Below are positions 2,165 through 45,606 of a stretch of DNA of 64,000 bases, piece by piece. Made by a program: the position numbers and the translations under genes. Source of the DNA: a bacterium. GTDB lineage: Bacteria; Patescibacteriota; Minisyncoccia; Phycocordibacterales; UBA9973. The notes below the pieces were generated by a model. The model ran no database searches and had not been told where the DNA came from. It saw only the letters and a list, made by a program, of their open reading frames with translations. The stretch is from positions 37,641 through 101,640 of the forward strand of contig JBAXSP010000001.1 of the NCBI GenBank assembly GCA_037130655.1, given 5' to 3'. How positions within the stretch are numbered: the first letter of the stretch is position 1; the number at the start of each line of letters is the position of its first letter.

Positions 2165-3328
2165 TTGATGAAGCAACTAATTGTCGGTATTGATATTGGA
2201 ACACATCTCACTCGTGTGACGGTATCCGCTACAACACGCGAAAATCCAGTACCACAGATCATTGGTTTCGGACAAGCTGAATCAAAAGGACTTCGTCACG
2301 GCTATATCGTCAATCCGCAAGATGCAACAATGAGCATCAAACAAGCGGTCTTGAATGCCGAAGAAAACACGAGTATCAAAATCAAAAAAGCTATCATTTC
2401 AATTGGTGGTATTAGTTTGTCGTCTGAATACGCAGTTGGTAGTGCTATCATCTCTCGTGCCGACAAAGAGATCTCTCCTATCGATATCAGTAATGCAATC
2501 AATGACAGTGAACAAAATTTGATTCTCACCAACAAACGTATTCTTCACCGTGTTCCGGTTGCTTACAAAGTTGATGGCAAATTGATTTCTGCGCGACCAG
2601 ATGGATTGAAAGGTATCAAACTCGAAGCAAAAGTATTGTTCGTCACTTGTTTGTCACAACACCTTGATGACTTACTTTCTGCAGTAACCAATGCTGGTAT
2701 TGAAGTAATGGACGTTGTCGCGAGTCCATTTGCAGCATCTTCTGTCACTCTTTCTTCAAAACAACGTACTGTCGGTAGTGTGCTCGTAGATATCGGATCT
2801 GAAACAGTGTCGATTGTGGTGTTTGAAAACGACATTCCTCTCACACTCCAAGTCTTCGGTATCGGCGGAGCTGAAATCACCAAAGACATTGCGCTCGGAT
2901 TCAAGATTCCATATGACGAAGCAGAAGGAATCAAAACAGGTTCTATTATGAGTGACCTGTCTCGCAAAAAATTGGATGAAATTATCCAAGCTCGACTCAC
3001 TGATATTTTTGAATTAGTCGATGCTCATTTGAAGAAAAATAAATGTAGCGGATTACTTGCGGGCGGTGCGGTGATTATGGGAGGTGGTGCACAATATCCA
3101 TACATCGAACAATTGGGCAAAGATATTTTGCGATTACCAGTCAAACTCGCTGATCCGGATATTTGGGGTAGTTCAAAAAATAGATTACGCGATTCATCGT
3201 GGTTTATCTCTGCAGGACTTTGTACTGGAATGTTTGGAAGTGGTGTAGATATGGAAGTAGACAATACTTCATTTATCCAAACAATCAAAAAGTTGTGGAA
3301 GAATGTTGTGCATCAGTTGATGCCATAA
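2165..3328 (+). CDS. ftsA: cell division protein FtsA
   Basis: Actin-like ATPase with N-terminal GIDIGT motif; 387 aa, immediately upstream of ftsZ. Confidence 0.9.
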   Translation: MMKQLIVGIDIGTHLTRVTVSATTRENPVPQIIGFGQAESKGLRHGYIVNPQDATMSIKQAVLNAEENTSIKIKKAIISIGGISLSSEYAVGSAIISRADKEISPIDISNAINDSEQNLILTNKRILHRVPVAYKVDGKLISARPDGLKGIKLEAKVLFVTCLSQHLDDLLSAVTNAGIEVMDVVASPFAASSVTLSSKQRTVGSVLVDIGSETVSIVVFENDIPLTLQVFGIGGAEITKDIALGFKIPYDEAEGIKTGSIMSDLSRKKLDEIIQARLTDIFELVDAHLKKNKCSGLLAGGAVIMGGGAQYPYIEQLGKDILRLPVKLADPDIWGSSKNRLRDSSWFISAGLCTGMFGSGVDMEVDNTSFIQTIKKLWKNVVHQLMP

Positions 3329-3372
3329 AACAAAAGAGGCGGAACACTTCGTGTTCCGCCTCTTTTGTTTTT
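3327..3372 (+). terminator. terminator after ftsA (21-bp stem; core GGCGGAACACTTCGTGTTCCGCC)
   Basis: Long perfect hairpin followed by a T-run. The identical 23-nt core recurs at 5829-5863. Confidence 0.7.
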
Positions 3373-4720: not shown

Positions 4721-4842
4721 AGCTAGCTACTAGCATTTAGCTTCTAGCGACTAGCTAAAACAAAAAGAGCGACAACCGAAGGTTGTCGCTCTTTTTGTTT
4801 CGATACACTAGCAACTAGTCACTAGAAACTAGAACCTAAAAA
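4721..4842. repeat. CTAG-type tandem heptamer arrays flanking the ftsZ terminator
   Basis: Left arm agctagc tactagc atttagc ttctagc gactagc. Right arm acactagcaactagtcactagaaactagaacctaaa, which is nearly identical to 50238-50272. Confidence 0.7.
4757..4800 (+). terminator. terminator after ftsZ (20-bp perfect stem AAACAAAAAGAGCGACAACC / GGTTGTCGCTCTTTTTGTTT)
   Basis: Perfect inverted repeat seen directly. Flanked by heptamer-repeat arms at 4721-4755 and 4806-4842. Confidence 0.75.
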
Positions 4843-6522: not shown

Positions 6523-6597
6523 GGCCCCATCGTCTAATGGTTAGGACAACGGGTTTTCAATCCGTTAACCGGAGTTCGACTCTCCGTGGGGTCACCA
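6523..6597 (+). tRNA. tRNA-Glu (anticodon TTC), CCA encoded
   Basis: Hand-folded cloverleaf: acceptor GGCCCCA/TGGGGTC, anticodon stem ACGGG/TCCGT, anticodon loop TTTTCAA, T-loop TTCGACT, 3' CCA. Confidence 0.9.
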
Positions 6598-6633
6598 CGA
6601 CAAAAAATCCCAACTGCTTGGGATTTTTTGCTA

Positions 6634-6760
6634 CGTGGTGAAGGCGCAGTGTTGCGTTTTGGAGCACTACGACAAAATGCCACGAGCCGGGGTCGCGAAC
6701 ACTTATGTCCACGCAGTTTACAGAGTAAACGAGTAGACTTAGTGATTCGTGACACAACAG
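6634..6760 (+). ncRNA. tRNA-3'-linked conserved structured element, copy A (putative ncRNA or tRNA 3'-trailer RNA; function unknown)
   Basis: Homologous to 16671-16840 and 46590-46757 (minus). Shares the blocks UACGA(C/U), GAGCCGGGGUCGCGA and ACUUAGU.AUUCGUGAC. The CGAACAC/GUGAUUCG helix shows compensatory changes relative to the other copies. Confidence 0.45.
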
Positions 6761-6804
6761 ATAAAAAAGAGTAGAATTACTTTTATAAAATTATTTTTAG
6801 AAAA

Positions 6805-15322: not shown

Positions 15323-15850
15323 ATGTTAAAAAAAAGATCTTTCTTCGAACGACTCACTGGTGGTATCAGACTTGAAGACGAAGTCCAACCAAAACCAAAC
15401 ACACAACCAACAAAAAGTCCTGCAATGGAAATGCCGGCAATGAAAAAGTCTGTGACAATTACACCGAAAGAAGCTGAGAATTTCTCAAAACCGATTGAAA
15501 TCAAAGAACCAGAAGTAGAAGAAGGTCAACTCACTGTTGATGTATATCAAACAACCACCGAAATCATCGTACAAACAATGGTGGCGGGTGTACGACCAGA
15601 AGATCTACAAATCAACATTACCCGTGACCAAGTCACTATTCGTGGTAAACGTGAAGAAAACAAAACAATCACCGATGAACAATTTTTCATCAAAGAACTT
15701 TATTGGGGTGCATTCTCTCGAACAGTTCTACTGCCACAAGAAGTAGAACCCGATATGGCAGAAGCCATCGAAAAACACGGACTCCTTATCATTAAGATTC
15801 CAAAGATTGATAAGAGTAAACAAACTACGTTGAAAGTAAAATCGATCTAA
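15323..15850 (+). CDS. Hsp20/alpha-crystallin family small heat shock protein
   Basis: Alpha-crystallin domain (DVYQT..EIIVQ..VAGVRPEDLQINI..VTIRGKRE...F.R...LP) with an N-terminal Pro/Thr-rich region. Confidence 0.8.
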   Translation: MLKKRSFFERLTGGIRLEDEVQPKPNTQPTKSPAMEMPAMKKSVTITPKEAENFSKPIEIKEPEVEEGQLTVDVYQTTTEIIVQTMVAGVRPEDLQINITRDQVTIRGKREENKTITDEQFFIKELYWGAFSRTVLLPQEVEPDMAEAIEKHGLLIIKIPKIDKSKQTTLKVKSI

Positions 15851-15853
15851 AAT

Positions 15854-15881
15854 AAAAAAACCACCAACTGGTGGTTTTTTT
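15854..15881 (+). terminator. rho-independent terminator after the hsp20 gene
   Basis: AAAAAAACCACCAACTGGTGGTTTTTTT. Confidence 0.7.
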
Positions 15882-15942
15882 ATTTTGACTTACACATCAT
15901 TGTCTGTTATATTTCGTAAGGCGTTATTTAAAAAAATACATA

Positions 15943-16347: not shown

Positions 16348-16442
16348 TCCCCTAACTCAATCGGGGATTTTTTTTATTTCACCTAGTATACCAGAAGAGC
16401 CATTCTGATGAATGAGCAGTGTGTGTGTCGGATAAACCTATA

Positions 16443-16471
16443 TTGAAAAAATGGAACAAATAAGCTATAAT
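16443..16471 (+). promoter_or_regulatory. consensus sigma70 promoter (TTGAAA-17 nt-TATAAT) upstream of tRNA-Phe
   Basis: -35 TTGAAA at 16443-16448, a 17-nt spacer, then -10 TATAAT at 16466-16471. Read directly from the sequence. Confidence 0.6.
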
Positions 16472-16564
16472 CAAAAAAGTGCATATATTGCTTGGATAGT
16501 TATTTTGGTAGGTATACGCAACGGAAAAAATCTGATATTATTGAAACCATTGAAATACACATAT

Positions 16565-16640
16565 GCTTGGATAGCTCAGTTGGTAGAGCGCTCCCCTGAA
16601 GAGGGATAGGTCCCCAGTTCGAGCCTGGGTCCAAGCACCA
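16565..16640 (+). tRNA. tRNA-Phe (anticodon GAA), CCA encoded
   Basis: Acceptor GCTTGGA/TCCAAGC, D-arm GCTC-AGTTGGTA-GAGC, anticodon loop CTGAAGA, T-arm CCCAG-TTCGAGC-CTGGG, 3' ACCA. Confidence 0.9.
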
Positions 16641-16670
16641 TATAAAAACCACGGAATTCCCGTGGTTTTT

Positions 16671-16840
16671 ATATGGTGCTTGGAAAGTAAATGAACTGCT
16701 TCATTTACGACAGACTCGAAAGACGGAGACATGGTTTTCGTTAGAAAACAGTCGAGTCGGGGTCGAGAGTACTTAGCAGAATTCGAACAAAGTGAAGAAT
16801 TCTAGTTAGTAACTCGTGACCGAGCCTGGGTTCCAAGCAC
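16671..16840 (+). ncRNA. tRNA-3'-linked conserved structured element, copy B
   Basis: Blocks UUACGAC, GAGUCGGGGUCGAGAGUACUUAG and UUAGUAACUCGUGAC. Terminal helix GUGCUUGGAA/UUCCAAGCAC. Ends with an 18/19-nt copy of the tRNA-Phe 3' end. Confidence 0.45.
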
Positions 16841-16847
16841 AAATAAT

Positions 16848-16871
16848 AAAACCTCCGATATCGGAGGTTTT
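16848..16871. terminator. bidirectional terminator (AAAACCTCCGATATCGGAGGTTTT)
   Basis: Perfect hairpin with an A-run and a T-run, between element B and the convergent gene 16877..17194. Confidence 0.7.
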
Positions 16872-16876
16872 ATTAT

Positions 16877-17194
16877 TTATTTATACAAATCGATCAGTGA
16901 TTTCAAATGATTGACATCAGGAATACCCCCAGTACCCACACCTGTTCCACCGGTATACAAATTGAGTAAACTACCCAAATATGGCTGTAAGAAGTAGAAA
17001 GAGCCGAATCCGAGACCGATAATTACAATCCAGTAAAAAATTCTAGTAATTTGTGCGATTTGTTGTCCTCGTCGTACTTTACGAACAATGACCGTATTTT
17101 CTTTTATCAATCCGATTAATTCGTCAATTTTTTGAGACAAATCATTATTTGAATTATTTTGACCATTTAGTTGATTTTGTAAATTTGGTTCCAT
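16877..17194 (-). CDS. hypothetical small membrane protein (Q/N-rich N-terminus, Gly-rich C-terminus)
   Basis: 105-aa ORF with one TM segment. Confidence 0.45.
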   Translation of the reverse strand: MEPNLQNQLNGQNNSNNDLSQKIDELIGLIKENTVIVRKVRRGQQIAQITRIFYWIVIIGLGFGSFYFLQPYLGSLLNLYTGGTGVGTGGIPDVNHLKSLIDLYK

Positions 17195-31338: not shown

Positions 31339-31393
31339 CATATAAATACAACTATAACAAAAAATCACCGTTCTGGGAACGGTGATTTTTTGT

Positions 31394-31699
31394 TTACTTA
31401 TTCATCATTACTTGCATGATCGGAGCAAGGACATCTTTGTGTTTAGCAATTTCTGCTTTGTATTTTCCTGCTACCAGCATTCCGGCATACATTTCATTCA
31501 TTCCTTCTTTCTTTTTTTCCTCCACTTCTTTTTGAATCTTTTCAAACAATTCTTTAACTTCTTTGTTTGAGTCCAATGCTTTCAAGGCATTGACCATTTC
31601 TGGATTAGATTCCAATTGTTCTGCAATACGTTCAGCATCTTCTTTCGAAGACCCTTTCATTCGCAATGCACTTTTCATTAAAAATTTCTTCATTCCCAT
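31394..31699 (-). CDS. hypothetical small protein
   Basis: 101-aa charged helical ORF. Terminator at 31358-31391. Confidence 0.4.
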   Translation of the reverse strand: MGMKKFLMKSALRMKGSSKEDAERIAEQLESNPEMVNALKALDSNKEVKELFEKIQKEVEEKKKEGMNEMYAGMLVAGKYKAEIAKHKDVLAPIMQVMMNK

Positions 31700-37581: not shown

Positions 37582-39567
37582 CTATTCATCCAAAAGTTTA
37601 CGGAGAACATCTTCTGGAACTTCTTTGTTTGTATCACTTTTTTGCGACTCTTTTTTCTCATCAGCAACATGAGGAGTTATCGGTCTTGCTGGAGCTGGAG
37701 CCGGTGCCGGTTTTGGAGCTTGCGATTTCGAAGCTTCCCCTTGTGCACTGTGCGAGACTTTCATCAATGCTTCTTTGAGTGAAGAAACTTTTTCAGCCGA
37801 AGCTGATTTGTCTTTTGTTAGTGATGAAAGTGAGAGTCCTTTTTTAGGTTCATCTTCTTTGTTGTTGATATTTCTTTCAAGCTCATCAACACCTTCTAAT
37901 TCACGAAGGATGTGGTGCATTTTTGAAGAAAAAGTATTTTTTTGAACAACAGGTTGCGGTGTTACTTCTTTTTGTATGACTTGTTCTGGTGCTCGATATG
38001 CTGTTTTTTTCTGTTCAAATACTTTCTTTTCAATTGTTTGCAGTACTTCTTTGACTGCTTGTTTTTCAGGTAAAATATTTTTGAAAGCTTCTTTAATTTT
38101 ATTTACCGGAGCAGGGAAGTTTGGTTTTTGGTTTTGAGTACCTGCATTTGTTGGTCCTTTTGTAGTGTAACTAGATGGGGAAGTCGGTTTAAATGAAGAC
38201 GATTGTTCTTTTGTATTCCCTGCTGGAGAAAATTTTTCTTTTTGAGAAAAATCGCCTTCTTTTTTACGTTCTGGAGCCTTTGTGGCTTCGAGAGAAATAC
38301 CAATTGCCTTTTCAACTTCTGCACGAGGTTTTGCGTACTGCTCTCTCGAACGTTCAATTACCCTATCCCTGTATGGTTGTGGCTCATTGACCGGCAAAAT
38401 AGTTCGAGCTGAAAACGGACGTGATTCTTGCCCATCAATCATCAAGCGAAGATATACTTGTGCGAAGCCCAGGTTCACCAAATCTTGATTCACAAACACT
38501 GGTGAGAATTGTTTTTCAAAAATATCAGCATCATCGGGGCCAATACGGAACGAAATCATCGTTCCAACGTTACCCAAAATAGCATCGCGAACTTCTTCAG
38601 TCATCTGTGCGACATATTGATTCGCAACAGTTAGTGCCAATTTGTATTTTCGAGATTCAGACAAAATTTGTGCAAATGCTTCGTTGGCAAAGTTTTGAAA
38701 TTCGTCCACATAGAAATAAAATGGCGCGGCTTTGTCCAATTGATCGCGACTCATTTCTGCGCGTTCCATCGCAGCCAAATAGATTTTGGTAATAATCGTA
38801 CCACCCAAAAGACTCATACTTTGCTCACCAATACGTCCTTTTGAAAGGTTAGCGATGAAGATTTTTTTCTTATCCATGATTTCTCGGAAATCGAACGATG
38901 ACGTTGGTTGTCCGATAATATTTCGAATAACTGGATTGGTAGTGAATTGTCCAATTTTGTTTTGAATCGCAGGTGTAGCTTCTTGAGCAAAACGGTCCGT
39001 ATATTTAGCAAATTCATCTACCCAAAAAGACTTCACCGCAGGGTCAGTGATGTGCGCGACAACTTGATTACGAAATTCTTTATCGGCAAACATTTTGTTG
39101 ATGAGCATCAACGTTGAACCCGGGTATTCGAGCAGTGCCAAAATCGTATTGTTCAGCATGTGTTCCATACGAGCAGAGAAAGAGTCTGGCCAAATCTTTT
39201 TGAAGGTACTCATGAGTCCTGATGCGACCAAGTGACGTTTGTCTGGGCCAATATTTTCCATGACATTGAAGGCGATTGGATATTCCAAATCAAACGGCGC
39301 AAAATACACCACATCATCAATACGGTGTGCAGGAATATATTCCAAAATTCGTTCCGCGAAAGAACCGTGAGGGTCAATAATTGCAAGCCCTTCGCCATTG
39401 TTCACGTCTTGGATTGCCAACGTTTCAAGGAGTGTTGATTTTCCAGTTCCAGTTTTTCCAATGATGTACGTGTGACGTGCACGATCTTTTTCTTTGATAC
39501 CAAAACGAACATTGCGATTGCGATGATCGGTTTCTCCAAAGTATGTGATGTGAGGATTTTCTGCCAT
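37582..39567 (-). CDS. TraD/VirD4-family (type IV coupling protein-like) P-loop ATPase with ~250-aa disordered K/P/E/S-rich C-terminal tail
   Basis: Walker A IIGKTGTGKSTLL...IDPHG, and Walker B/TraG-D_C-like FYVDEFQNF...ESRKYKLALTVANQ. Start moved to MAENPHITY. Confidence 0.65.
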   Translation of the reverse strand: MAENPHITYFGETDHRNRNVRFGIKEKDRARHTYIIGKTGTGKSTLLETLAIQDVNNGEGLAIIDPHGSFAERILEYIPAHRIDDVVYFAPFDLEYPIAFNVMENIGPDKRHLVASGLMSTFKKIWPDSFSARMEHMLNNTILALLEYPGSTLMLINKMFADKEFRNQVVAHITDPAVKSFWVDEFAKYTDRFAQEATPAIQNKIGQFTTNPVIRNIIGQPTSSFDFREIMDKKKIFIANLSKGRIGEQSMSLLGGTIITKIYLAAMERAEMSRDQLDKAAPFYFYVDEFQNFANEAFAQILSESRKYKLALTVANQYVAQMTEEVRDAILGNVGTMISFRIGPDDADIFEKQFSPVFVNQDLVNLGFAQVYLRLMIDGQESRPFSARTILPVNEPQPYRDRVIERSREQYAKPRAEVEKAIGISLEATKAPERKKEGDFSQKEKFSPAGNTKEQSSSFKPTSPSSYTTKGPTNAGTQNQKPNFPAPVNKIKEAFKNILPEKQAVKEVLQTIEKKVFEQKKTAYRAPEQVIQKEVTPQPVVQKNTFSSKMHHILRELEGVDELERNINNKEDEPKKGLSLSSLTKDKSASAEKVSSLKEALMKVSHSAQGEASKSQAPKPAPAPAPARPITPHVADEKKESQKSDTNKEVPEDVLRKLLDE

Positions 39568-39652
39568 ATTGATTACAGTATAGCAAGAAGTATGAGGATA
39601 AAGTATGAGGATAAAAAACTCTCTATTAAAATAGAGAGTTACATTCGATTTA

Positions 39653-40246
39653 CTATTTAATTTTGTACAGATCAAACTGTATAATAGCTTGAACCATTTC
39701 GTGATTTACAAAATGTTCTTTCTTATGAAAAGAATATTTTCTAGAGTCCTCCTTACTAATTCCGTTCAATACCATAAAATCAGTCCCGGCAACCTTCATT
39801 GCCCAATCATCCATATCGATAGTTGAAGGAAATGGTTCAGTAAAAGCATCTTTGATAACTATTTGATGTGTAGGTCCATTAACTTGATTGCCGGCATTTG
39901 GAGAAAGGCGTGAAAAATCTATACAAAAGGCATTTAAATTATTATCCTTCATATACTTATTTCTCAGATTAACATACTTGGCCGGAGCCTCTCGAAACAT
40001 TTTTTTCTGAAAAGCCTGCCATACAGCAAACAGTTCTTTGGTTTTTATTTTCTTTTCATCTGACAAAACTTCATAATTTCCATCAATAATCCGAGAAATA
40101 AAATCACGATTTTTCTGTTCTTGAACCTTTTCTTCTTGATCAATATCGGCAAGATTCTGCTTCTTGTTTTTGTTTTTAATATATAAAAAATGTATTAAAA
40201 TCCATAATAATACAGCACCGCCGACTATGTACACTAAAATATCCAT
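39653..40246 (-). CDS. hypothetical membrane-anchored protein (first gene of the TraD-like operon)
   Basis: 197 aa with an N-terminal TM segment; co-directional and tightly spaced with the next two genes. Confidence 0.5.
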   Translation of the reverse strand: MDILVYIVGGAVLLWILIHFLYIKNKNKKQNLADIDQEEKVQEQKNRDFISRIIDGNYEVLSDEKKIKTKELFAVWQAFQKKMFREAPAKYVNLRNKYMKDNNLNAFCIDFSRLSPNAGNQVNGPTHQIVIKDAFTEPFPSTIDMDDWAMKVAGTDFMVLNGISKEDSRKYSFHKKEHFVNHEMVQAIIQFDLYKIK

Positions 40247-45430: not shown

Positions 45431-45443
45431 AAGAAGTAAAAAC

Positions 45444-45473
45444 AAAAAAATCACCCCGATAGGTGATTTTTTT
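45444..45473. terminator. bidirectional terminator (AAAAAAATCACCCCGATAGGTGATTTTTTT)
   Basis: Perfect hairpin with an A7 run and a T7 run between convergent small genes. Confidence 0.75.
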
Positions 45474-45477
45474 GTTT

Positions 45478-45606
45478 TTACTTCTTCTTCCCTTTTACTA
45501 CCTTTTTTCTTGAAGCAAGTAGTGCGATCTTCTTTGCTACACGAGCTGCTGGCTTATGTGCTTTGACGAACTTTAGTTTACTGATTGAATTTTTTCTTTT
45601 TGCCAT
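45478..45606 (-). CDS. hypothetical 42-aa highly basic protein (not in the ORF track)
   Basis: Minus-strand ORF MAKRKNSISKLKFVKAHKPAARVAKKIALLASRKKVVKGKKK. It ends at the bidirectional terminator and is ribosomal-protein-like in composition, but no family was recognised. Confidence 0.35.
   Translation of the reverse strand: MAKRKNSISKLKFVKAHKPAARVAKKIALLASRKKVVKGKKK

Follow-up and report, generated by a model that had tools for sequence, protein, structure and literature searches.

The 64,000-nt stretch analysed here, which we call the window, comes from a Patescibacteria chromosome (contig JBAXSP010000001.1, positions 37,641 to 101,640) and carries the housekeeping genes FtsA, FtsZ, LeuRS, MreB and TsaD along with five tRNA genes. 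Three of these, tRNA-Phe, tRNA-Asn and tRNA-Glu, are followed by a structured element of about 160-215 nt that contains no open reading frame (ORF) and whose first part reaches back into the tRNA as a long hairpin. The hairpin at tRNA-Phe, and the element to which it belongs, are the subject of this analysis.

The first-pass annotation of this DNA described a 54-bp perfect palindrome overlapping the last 11 nt of tRNA-Phe. An inverted-repeat search confirmed a hairpin with 25-nt arms, 100% complementary, at 16630-16654 (TCCAAGCACCATATAAAAACCACGG) and 16660-16684 (CCGTGGTTTTTATATGGTGCTTGGA), the left arm exactly as annotated and the hairpin indeed covering the final 11 nt of the tRNA. The right arm had been placed one base off (16659-16683, around a 4-nt AATT centre), and the feature is a 55-nt hairpin with a 5-nt AATTC loop instead of a 54-bp palindrome. 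Its inner part, hp1 (AAAAACCACGG-AATTC-CCGTGGTTTTT), is an ordinary A/T-flanked hairpin of terminator style, with a CCACGG/CCGTGG stem and A and T runs when inspected by eye; a consensus terminator scan left it unlisted, probably since the stem runs beyond the T-run. Perfect palindromic hairpins of 17-25 nt with A/T flanks are frequent in the window (e.g. 45431-45486, 3327-3371 and 4758-4800; others, at 15849-15886 and 31356-31394, likewise have long A and T runs, and such hairpins follow many genes). Bidirectional-terminator-style hairpins thus appear to be the norm in this genome, and for that reason the length of the hairpin alone is ordinary. The terminator class can account for the inner part only. 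The unusual part is the outer 14 bp, where nucleotides 66-76 of tRNA-Phe plus four trailer bases are paired with their own antisense.

Analogous hairpins had also been noted at tRNA-Glu and tRNA-Asn, and these are real. At tRNA-Glu (6592-6641) the segment 6592-6599 (TCACCACG) pairs with 6634-6641 (CGTGGTGA) around an inner hairpin, and at tRNA-Asn the 24-nt arms at 46753-46776 and 46781-46804 are 92% complementary. No downstream 3'-end complement longer than 6 nt, which is the chance level, exists at tRNA-Val or tRNA-Arg, and the design recurs at exactly the three element-carrying tRNAs, as had been suggested. The expectation that such complementarity should be more common downstream of element-bearing tRNAs than elsewhere was borne out by a survey of related loci, where the longest 3'-end antisense had a median of 10 nt for element-bearing and 6 nt for element-less tRNAs (p = 9e-8). 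The second hairpin arm does form the start of the downstream element; the 5' acceptor strand that it was said to recreate results simply from the arm being the antisense of the 3' acceptor strand.

What is this element then? A conserved core (CGAGYCGGGGTCGMGARYACTTA..hairpin..TTAGTRAYTCGTGAC) is common to the three downstream regions and occurs three times in the window, after tRNA-Phe, tRNA-Asn and tRNA-Glu only. The covariance model R1, built from relatives, recovers the same three copies and no others: 16709-16832 on the forward strand (101.8 bits, E about 1e-24), 46590-46726 on the reverse strand (71.0 bits) and 6630-6765 on the forward strand (52.9 bits). From 5' to 3' the element consists of the gene 3' segment T, hairpin hp1, the antisense T', a one-base linker, the core and a direct repeat of T, which we call the tail (Table 1). 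The core measures about 100 nt, the antisense or guide T' 8-25 nt and the target copy 20-55 nt. The guide is often split at the acceptor/T-stem boundary by hp2, a recurrent module of the family that commonly has a CUGC loop. The 3' end of the element is GUGAC and the tail starts immediately after it. All three window copies share what we take to define the family, namely a P1.1/P2/P3 core ending in GUGAC, an antisense segment before it and a direct repeat after it. At tRNA-Phe the direct repeat joins 16620-16648 to 16821-16849 at a spacing of 201, and the terminal AA of guide part b pairs with U54-U55, upstream of the insertion point. At tRNA-Glu the insertion point lies at 6593/6594, at the last acceptor pair or discriminator. 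T' can pair either with the element-borne copy of the gene end, T(e), forming helix P0 (the palindrome), or with the tail, forming helix P1.

Table 1. Parts of the three window copies and adjoining features (positions of the window; T(e), proposed element-borne replacement copy of the gene 3' end).
Feature	Position	Strand	Basis or remark
tRNA-Phe (GAA)	16565-16640	+	ARAGORN, Rfam
Phe T(e), tRNA nt 56-76	16620-16640	+	direct repeat
Phe stem P0 (hairpin under study)	16630-16684	+	tRNA nt 66-76 and 4 trailer nt, hp1, guide part a; present in predicted folds
Phe hp1, terminator-like hairpin inside P0	16644-16670	+	
Phe guide part a, ATATGGTGCTTGGA	16671-16684	+	
Phe hp2, small hairpin GTAAATGAA-CTGC-TTCATTTAC	16687-16708	+	splits guide at acceptor/T-stem boundary
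Phe guide part b, GACAGACTCG + AA	16709-16720	+	antisense of tRNA nt 54-65, one mismatch
Phe three-way-junction core (P1.1, P2, GGG, P3), ends GUGAC	16721-16820	+	R1 score, covariation
Phe tail, slightly decayed displaced copy of tRNA-Phe nt 56-74 (CGAGCCTGGGTTCCAAGCA)	16821-16839	+	pairs with guide as helix P1
Terminator hairpin downstream of the tail, 19 bp, perfect; probably that of the original tRNA-Phe gene	16841-16878	+	
tRNA-Asn element	46602-46816	-	R1, repeat and fold analysis
Asn T(e), tRNA nt 56 to 3' end	46816-46798	-	
Asn hp1	within 46753-46804	-	
Asn guide a, TGCTCCCC	46760-46753	-	
Asn hp2	46752-46729	-	
Asn guide b, GTAGGGATCGAA	46726-46715	-	
Asn core	GUGAC end at 46602	-	
Asn tail, CGATCCCTAT, copy of tRNA-Asn nt 56-65	46592-46601	-	
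tRNA-Glu element, acceptor-end type	6593-6753	+	R1
Glu hp1	6601-6630	+	
Glu guide, 8 nt, CGTGGTGA	6634-6641	+	
Glu core, ends GUGAC	6642-6753	+	
Glu decayed tail, ACAACAGATAAAAAAG (cf. ACCACGACAAAAAATC after tRNA-Glu)	6754-6769	+	read directly from sequence

The core folds as a three-way junction. P1.1 is a 3-bp helix (GxC:GyC) followed by a GSA/GA internal loop, P2 is a hairpin with a bulged A followed by GGG, and P3 is a long hairpin with a nearly invariant lower stem, GUCG(M)GAG...CUCGUGAC, that contains a G·U pair, a bulged A and a U·U mismatch. In 24 hand-checked sequences 82.6% of the cells of this model pair, against 35-43% in slid registers. An alignment of 144 copies gave 87% paired cells and compensatory changes in 41 of 43 pairs, a result matched by none of 500 shuffles, although this alignment was fitted to the model and its covariation counts lean towards it. 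P1.1 is paired in 98% of cases and makes use of all four Watson-Crick pair types. The same alignment contains 204 G·U or U·G against 122 A·C or C·A combinations, plus the one invariant G·U, and this excess modestly favours the gene-sense strand as the one that would fold. Free-form predictions for 16618-16820 and 46602-46818 returned a long T:T' arm together with P1.1/P2 and P3 (z-scores -11 and -13). The lower stem of P3 abuts the junction and combines an invariant sequence with a G·U pair and a bulge, so that an active site or a protein handle would most naturally be sought there.

The guide is specific for the gene that it follows. Its longest exact antisense match has a median of 11 nt to its own tRNA and 5 nt to non-cognate tRNAs, and at least 10 of the last 23 tRNA nucleotides are paired with the guide in 61 of 97 copies. 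The direct repeat in the tail shows the corresponding preference (median 8.5 nt with the cognate tRNA and 5 nt with others); the likeness of the tail to the tRNA starts at nucleotide 56, runs to the 3' end and is lost beyond it. Some direct repeats take in the whole native terminator (47 nt in locus L021). The junction itself is informative. At sites outside the T-loop, where the flanking dinucleotides vary, the two guide bases past +1 are complementary to target position -1 in 21/26 and to position -2 in 23/26 cases, and the guide therefore matches the uninterrupted target. Position +1 of the target is C in 65/73. Among the copies of the family the pairs between tRNA and guide in P0 are 98% Watson-Crick with nearly no G·U (2%), a pattern that agrees less well with an RNA regulatory helix than with matching of guide to target or with maintenance as DNA.

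The element is widespread. Exact-pattern scans, in which loci and not whole genomes were the unit of survey, returned at least 120 loci from species-representative genomes and at least 120 further loci from metagenomes, with at least 129 and at least 126 matches to the core motif respectively (at least 255 in total). Almost all are from Patescibacteria, the listed host groups being Saccharibacteria, Paceibacteria/Parcubacteria, Kaiser-, Yonath-, Nomura-, Campbell-, Wolfe- and Zambryskibacteria and Minisyncoccia, and the viral contigs searched held no copy of the core. Two element-bearing contigs carry other labels, L016 (Patiriisocius sp.) and L098 (Candidatus Magnetominusculus); the former has Patescibacteria-like neighbour genes, and both are probably mis-binned and do not reflect real spread beyond the phylum. 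The element always lies on the same strand as the upstream gene and immediately after it. A same-strand tRNA was found within 450 nt upstream of 96/129 of the pattern matches in genome loci, and of the 144 covariance-model matches 100 directly follow a same-strand tRNA or transfer-messenger RNA (tmRNA) and 18 follow another copy. The listed loci include every tRNA isotype as a target and tmRNA repeatedly. Within tRNAs two sublocations are used, the T-loop between nucleotides 55 and 56 (TT|CGA; Phe and Asn) and the last acceptor pair (Glu here, Trp elsewhere). Occupancy is 3 of 5 tRNAs in the window and 98/155 tRNA or tmRNA genes in a set of loci that is biased. The family extends further than R1 reaches. 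Copies of a divergent sub-family, ending ..CTGGAGAC| or ..GAGAGTGAC| in place of ..TCGTGAC|, stand in tandem with canonical ones (L102 5869-5991, and upstream of the canonical copies in L089 and L104, in locus coordinates), and a complement of the 3' end, 9 nt or longer, is still present downstream of 16 of 57 'element-less' tRNAs; the model thus misses part of the superfamily.

The same architecture is found inside the last codons of protein genes, identified by Pfam: ftsZ in three species (L092, L119 and, as two tandem copies, L011), rpsI (L026), rplB (L100) and rplL (L179, 18 codons before the stop). In each case a live gene end lies upstream of the element. The tails at ftsZ and rpsI re-encode the replaced C-terminal residues with different synonymous codons (e.g. 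VPAFLRRSKLK* in L011), and at rplL the first three residues match before the tail decays. These sites also bear on the proposal of the first-pass annotation that pairing of the mature tRNA 3' end affects RNase P/RNase Z processing or holds a downstream RNA with the tRNA. As protein genes have the same architecture, the design would not be about tRNA maturation, and this proposal is not supported.

Several observations bear on how the copies spread. Arrays of two to four stand behind a single tmRNA, ftsZ or tRNA gene (L064 3532-3918, L011 6761-7062, L068 7482-7750 and L016 1730-2612), and in the L016 array only about 9 nt (CGCAGCGGG) remain of the hairpin between two cores, pointing to a deletion of the long palindrome. 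Tandem or within-genome copies are as divergent from each other (identity 0.633) as copies from different genomes (0.629), and the nearest-neighbour core sits at a different tRNA isotype in 91/100 cases. When all loci were compared with one another, most of the matches were identical duplicates; of the related pairs, two keep the element in both members and one is informative. In this last pair, two related genomes with 88% identical flanks, the alignment ends at the 3' end of tRNA-Val, after which one genome has a full element plus remnants and the other has a hairpin and a tail remnant only. The shorter locus (L238 11950-12100) keeps a hairpin reaching 7 nt into the tRNA and the remnant ..TTGTAC|CAAGTCC.., while the orthologous one (L085 6500-6900) has several further tail- and guide-like fragments after the full element; both regions look like graveyards of decayed copies.

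No recurrent neighbour protein was found within 4 kb of the loci when their ORFs were clustered (120, then 240 loci), only housekeeping genes, each at no more than 20 loci. A Pfam scan of 30 window proteins gave no recombinase, reverse transcriptase or transposase. The sole gene related to mobility or DNA transfer among those 30 encodes a 697-residue protein (37582-39675, reverse strand) with TrwB/TraG-type coupling-protein and HerA-like ATPase matches. Rfam 15 covers hammerhead, twister, pistol, hatchet, HDV-like, group I/II intron, HEARO, IS605-orfB, T-box and tmRNA families among others, and the five tRNAs are the sole features of the window to reach the gathering threshold; searching 16400-17000 by E-value added only weak sub-threshold hairpin and terminator noise, and on the related loci only tRNAs and tmRNAs were found. 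A literature search returned no description of such an element, only the unrelated group I tRNA introns of Patescibacteria.

Taken together, the architecture with its covarying fold, the specificity of the guide for its target across the junction, the replacement of 3' ends in both RNA and protein genes, and the tandem arrays of divergent copies with no linked protein gene lead us to think it probable, from sequence comparison, that this is a mobile insertion element of an undescribed kind, protein-less and guided by nucleic acid, with its site chosen by base pairing. The best reading of the tRNA-Phe palindrome is then as the closing stem P0, in which the element's own target copy T(e) is paired with the guide T' and capped by hp1. 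The element would enter between target positions -1 and +1, and T(e) would restore the gene, supplying tRNA nucleotides 56-76 at T-loop sites and the last acceptor base or bases plus trailer at acceptor-end sites. The original 3' end would be pushed downstream and stay there as the tail, a decaying direct repeat. T', complementary to positions -2 to +N of the uninterrupted target, would act as the guide at insertion. The active form may be a gene-sense read-through RNA made from the host gene, or the equivalent single-stranded DNA, and the agent of strand transfer at GUGAC|+1 may be either the core or an unlinked protein, of the host or acting in trans. As each insertion regenerates the target, repeated insertions would produce tandem arrays, and essential genes would never be inactivated, since the element brings a spare gene 3' end along. 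Going further, we raise as a tentative idea, with the odds rather against it, that a free-standing molecule of about 200 nt, RNA or single-stranded DNA, works as a programmable insertion device whose core joins its GUGAC-3' end to target +1, either as a ribozyme in a manner resembling reverse splicing or as a scaffold for an unlinked Patescibacteria protein.

Some results weigh against a guided mobile element. No catalyst was found among the ORF neighbours of the 240 loci or the 30 window proteins, and neither an excised form nor a transcript was observed, nor an empty site in a close strain; exact-protein look-ups located the organism in one sample only. Recent transposition or intragenomic proliferation is not seen, as near-identical copies within a genome were not found (0.633 against 0.629, above). 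Relative to the tRNA, the guide is conserved to about the same degree as the tail (0.96 and 1.48 differences per 10 nt, p = 0.11), which leaves room for an in-situ RNA role of P1, and the almost pure Watson-Crick pairing of P0 could reflect homogenisation of a DNA palindrome rather than selection on a guide. The strand evidence is modest too, resting as it does on 204 against 122 combinations and one invariant G·U in an alignment fitted to the model.

If the hairpin were nothing but a bidirectional intrinsic terminator with its stem extended into the tRNA by chance, the terminator form of hp1 and the abundance of long perfect A/T-flanked hairpins in this genome would be explained at once. However, the 14-bp extension is specific to the tRNA, it is found at all element-bearing genes and at neither tRNA-Val nor tRNA-Arg, and the 61/97 copies with at least 10 paired nucleotides contrast with non-cognate controls at chance level, so that we regard this account as effectively refuted. 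A generalised form of the earlier processing idea deserves more consideration. The element could be a cis-acting RNA in the service of the host, the antisense in the read-through transcript pairing with the gene 3' end and controlling its processing, stability or termination. The fixed strand and position directly after the gene, the strong conservation of the structure, the high occupancy in the window and in the biased locus set, and the fact that even old, divergent elements keep a guide able to pair with the live gene copy would all suit such a role. It leaves unexplained, however, the downstream duplication of the 3' end with its synonymous-codon differences, the arrays in which divergent copies stand in tandem, the uneven occurrence of the element among tRNAs and between related genomes, and cores that do not track tRNA identity. 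A regulatory RNA helix should also tolerate G·U pairs, of which P0 has 2%, and the tRNA would presumably have folded before the antisense is transcribed; overall we consider a host-serving RNA improbable.

Somewhat less improbable, but still unlikely in our opinion, is a conventional integrative mini-element or cassette, moved by an unlinked recombinase or passively through natural transformation and homologous recombination with the gene and the tail as arms. The T(e)/T' palindrome and the core would then be a folded attachment site or a protein-binding scaffold, and there would be no guide. Direct repeats of the gene 3' end do flank the insert, as they do in tRNA- and tmRNA-targeting islands, and some span the whole native terminator as in L021; P0 is nearly pure Watson-Crick; and the T-loop and the 3' end are reportedly among the tRNA sublocations of integrase subfamilies. 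Yet the targets, which include all tRNA isotypes and unrelated sites in ftsZ, rpsI, rplB and rplL, have no sequence in common beyond the preference for C at +1, and every copy still carries a matching antisense across the junction, which a core site specified by a protein does not predict. For RecA-dependent recombination, arms of 20 nt would be short, and a passive cassette has no need of a 100-nt core with covariation in 41/43 pairs. The guided mobile element remains our preferred explanation.

Several other classes were considered and rejected. A retroviral-type primer-binding site does not agree with tRNA-Asn, where the antisense follows the genomic trailer (GCAAAA) with no added CCA and runs through the T-loop. 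An H/ACA-like modification pocket, an idea taken from the hairpin-split guide, fails as many guides are unsplit and the unpaired target bases are not U. For a hammerhead or another small self-cleaving ribozyme, the junction strands AAA and GGG are by eye unlike the hammerhead core and no such Rfam family scored. Mimicry of an RNase P external guide or of a tRNA minihelix is possible as a by-product of guide-tail pairing at tRNAs, but it is inapplicable at protein-gene sites.

The neighbourhood of tRNA-Phe shows two further peculiarities. At 16489-16511, just 3' of a strong promoter-like site (TTGAAA-17-TATAAT, 16443-16471) and exactly one tRNA length upstream of the live gene, the first 23 nt of tRNA-Phe are repeated with 83% identity. 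This copy is also 86% complementary to the 3' end of tRNA-Phe with its trailer; an earlier rearrangement may have left it behind, or it may serve leader-trailer pairing. In addition, the contigs (L121, L124) of a short-read assembly of this organism, publicly available, break off to either side of the tRNA-Phe element, at ~16601 inside tRNA-Phe and at ~16849 inside the downstream terminator. The palindrome or the repeat appears to disrupt assembly here.

If the preferred explanation is right, this would be a very compact mobile element free of protein genes, with its choice of site written in a short antisense segment, and with more than 20 different tRNAs, tmRNA and at least four essential protein genes among the targets to which it has been redirected in nature. 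Group II introns, bridge RNAs, OMEGA systems and CRISPR-associated transposons would be joined by a new kind of genome rearrangement guided by nucleic acid, one found in bacteria whose tiny genomes had been supposed to hold few mobile elements. In practical terms, the element would account for assembly breaks and for odd 'tRNA fragments' downstream of Patescibacteria tRNA genes, and the covariance model can be used to annotate these elements.

How does the element compare with known systems? It shares features with several of them, but falls outside introns, tRNA-targeting islands, bridge-RNA systems and IS200/IS605 systems as these are defined. R2-type retroelements also insert into a conserved RNA gene, depend on read-through transcription and include host-gene sequence in the fold of the element RNA; however, R2 is eukaryotic, protein-encoding and reverse-transcriptase-dependent, and it disrupts the host gene copy. 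Integron attC cassettes and the CTX-phi attP(+) site are hairpins with conserved bulges or mismatches that are recognised as structures, with a folded strand mimicking a duplex, and they too form tandem arrays. In contrast, the junction GUGAC|C has no apparent R-box (GTTRRRY) by eye, with no attC model having been run, no integron integrase is nearby, and many different targets are used instead of attI or dif. The bridge (seek) RNAs of IS110/IS1111, and IS200/IS605 elements with their ORF-less derivatives (PATEs and ends bearing omega-RNA), resemble it in that the target choice lies in the element's own nucleic acid, in that the element end holds a non-coding structured segment of about 100-200 nt, and in that short non-autonomous derivatives exist. 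Here, however, no DEDD recombinase, TnpA or TnpB is adjacent in the 240 loci and no Rfam family matches. Bridge RNAs have two short guide loops, one binding the target and one the donor, whereas our element has a single guide in a three-way-junction fold, and IS200/IS605 elements use 4-nt DNA guides without target duplication, whereas direct repeats of the target reach 47 nt here.

The closest likenesses are to introns and to tRNA-targeting islands. Group II and group I introns are structured RNAs that pick their site via internal guides spanning the junction (exon- and intron-binding sequences, EBS/IBS, or the internal guide sequence), target conserved genes and occur as ORF-less copies; the lower stem of P3 loosely recalls domain V of group II introns, with an invariant G·U, a C-G-C/A triplet and a 3'-strand bulge directly beside the 3' end of the element, which we regard as a lead only. 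A group II intron, however, is a six-domain ribozyme of about 400 nt or more, compared with a core of ~100 nt and no Intron_gpII match here, and its EBS1/2 pair with the 5' exon, whereas our guide pairs mainly downstream of the junction. A group I intron ends in G and not in C (...GUGAC), and no Rfam match to the P3-P9 core was obtained; the group I introns known from Patescibacteria tRNAs sit at position 35/36 in the anticodon loop (PMC13011429). Neither a reverse transcriptase nor a homing endonuclease is found near the 240 loci. Unlike an intron, the element need not splice, because it brings a replacement 3' end with a stop codon or tRNA terminus. That feature it shares with tyrosine-integrase islands and prophages, which insert at the T-loop or 3' end of tRNA and tmRNA genes, supply a new gene 3' end, leave the displaced one as a direct repeat according to attL/attR logic and form tandem arrays at the regenerated site. 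The flanking direct repeat of the gene 3' segment, with the gene restored, is present here as well, while the integrase gene is not: the insert is 160-215 nt long without an ORF, and none recurs within 4 kb at 240 loci. Unlike such islands, the element carries an antisense of its target and a covarying single-strand fold, and one family is retargeted to unrelated protein-gene sites. In having an internal guide that spans the junction, it would be closest in its working to introns of group II or group I, and in its replacement of the gene 3' end and its att-like repeats it resembles a tRNA-targeting island.

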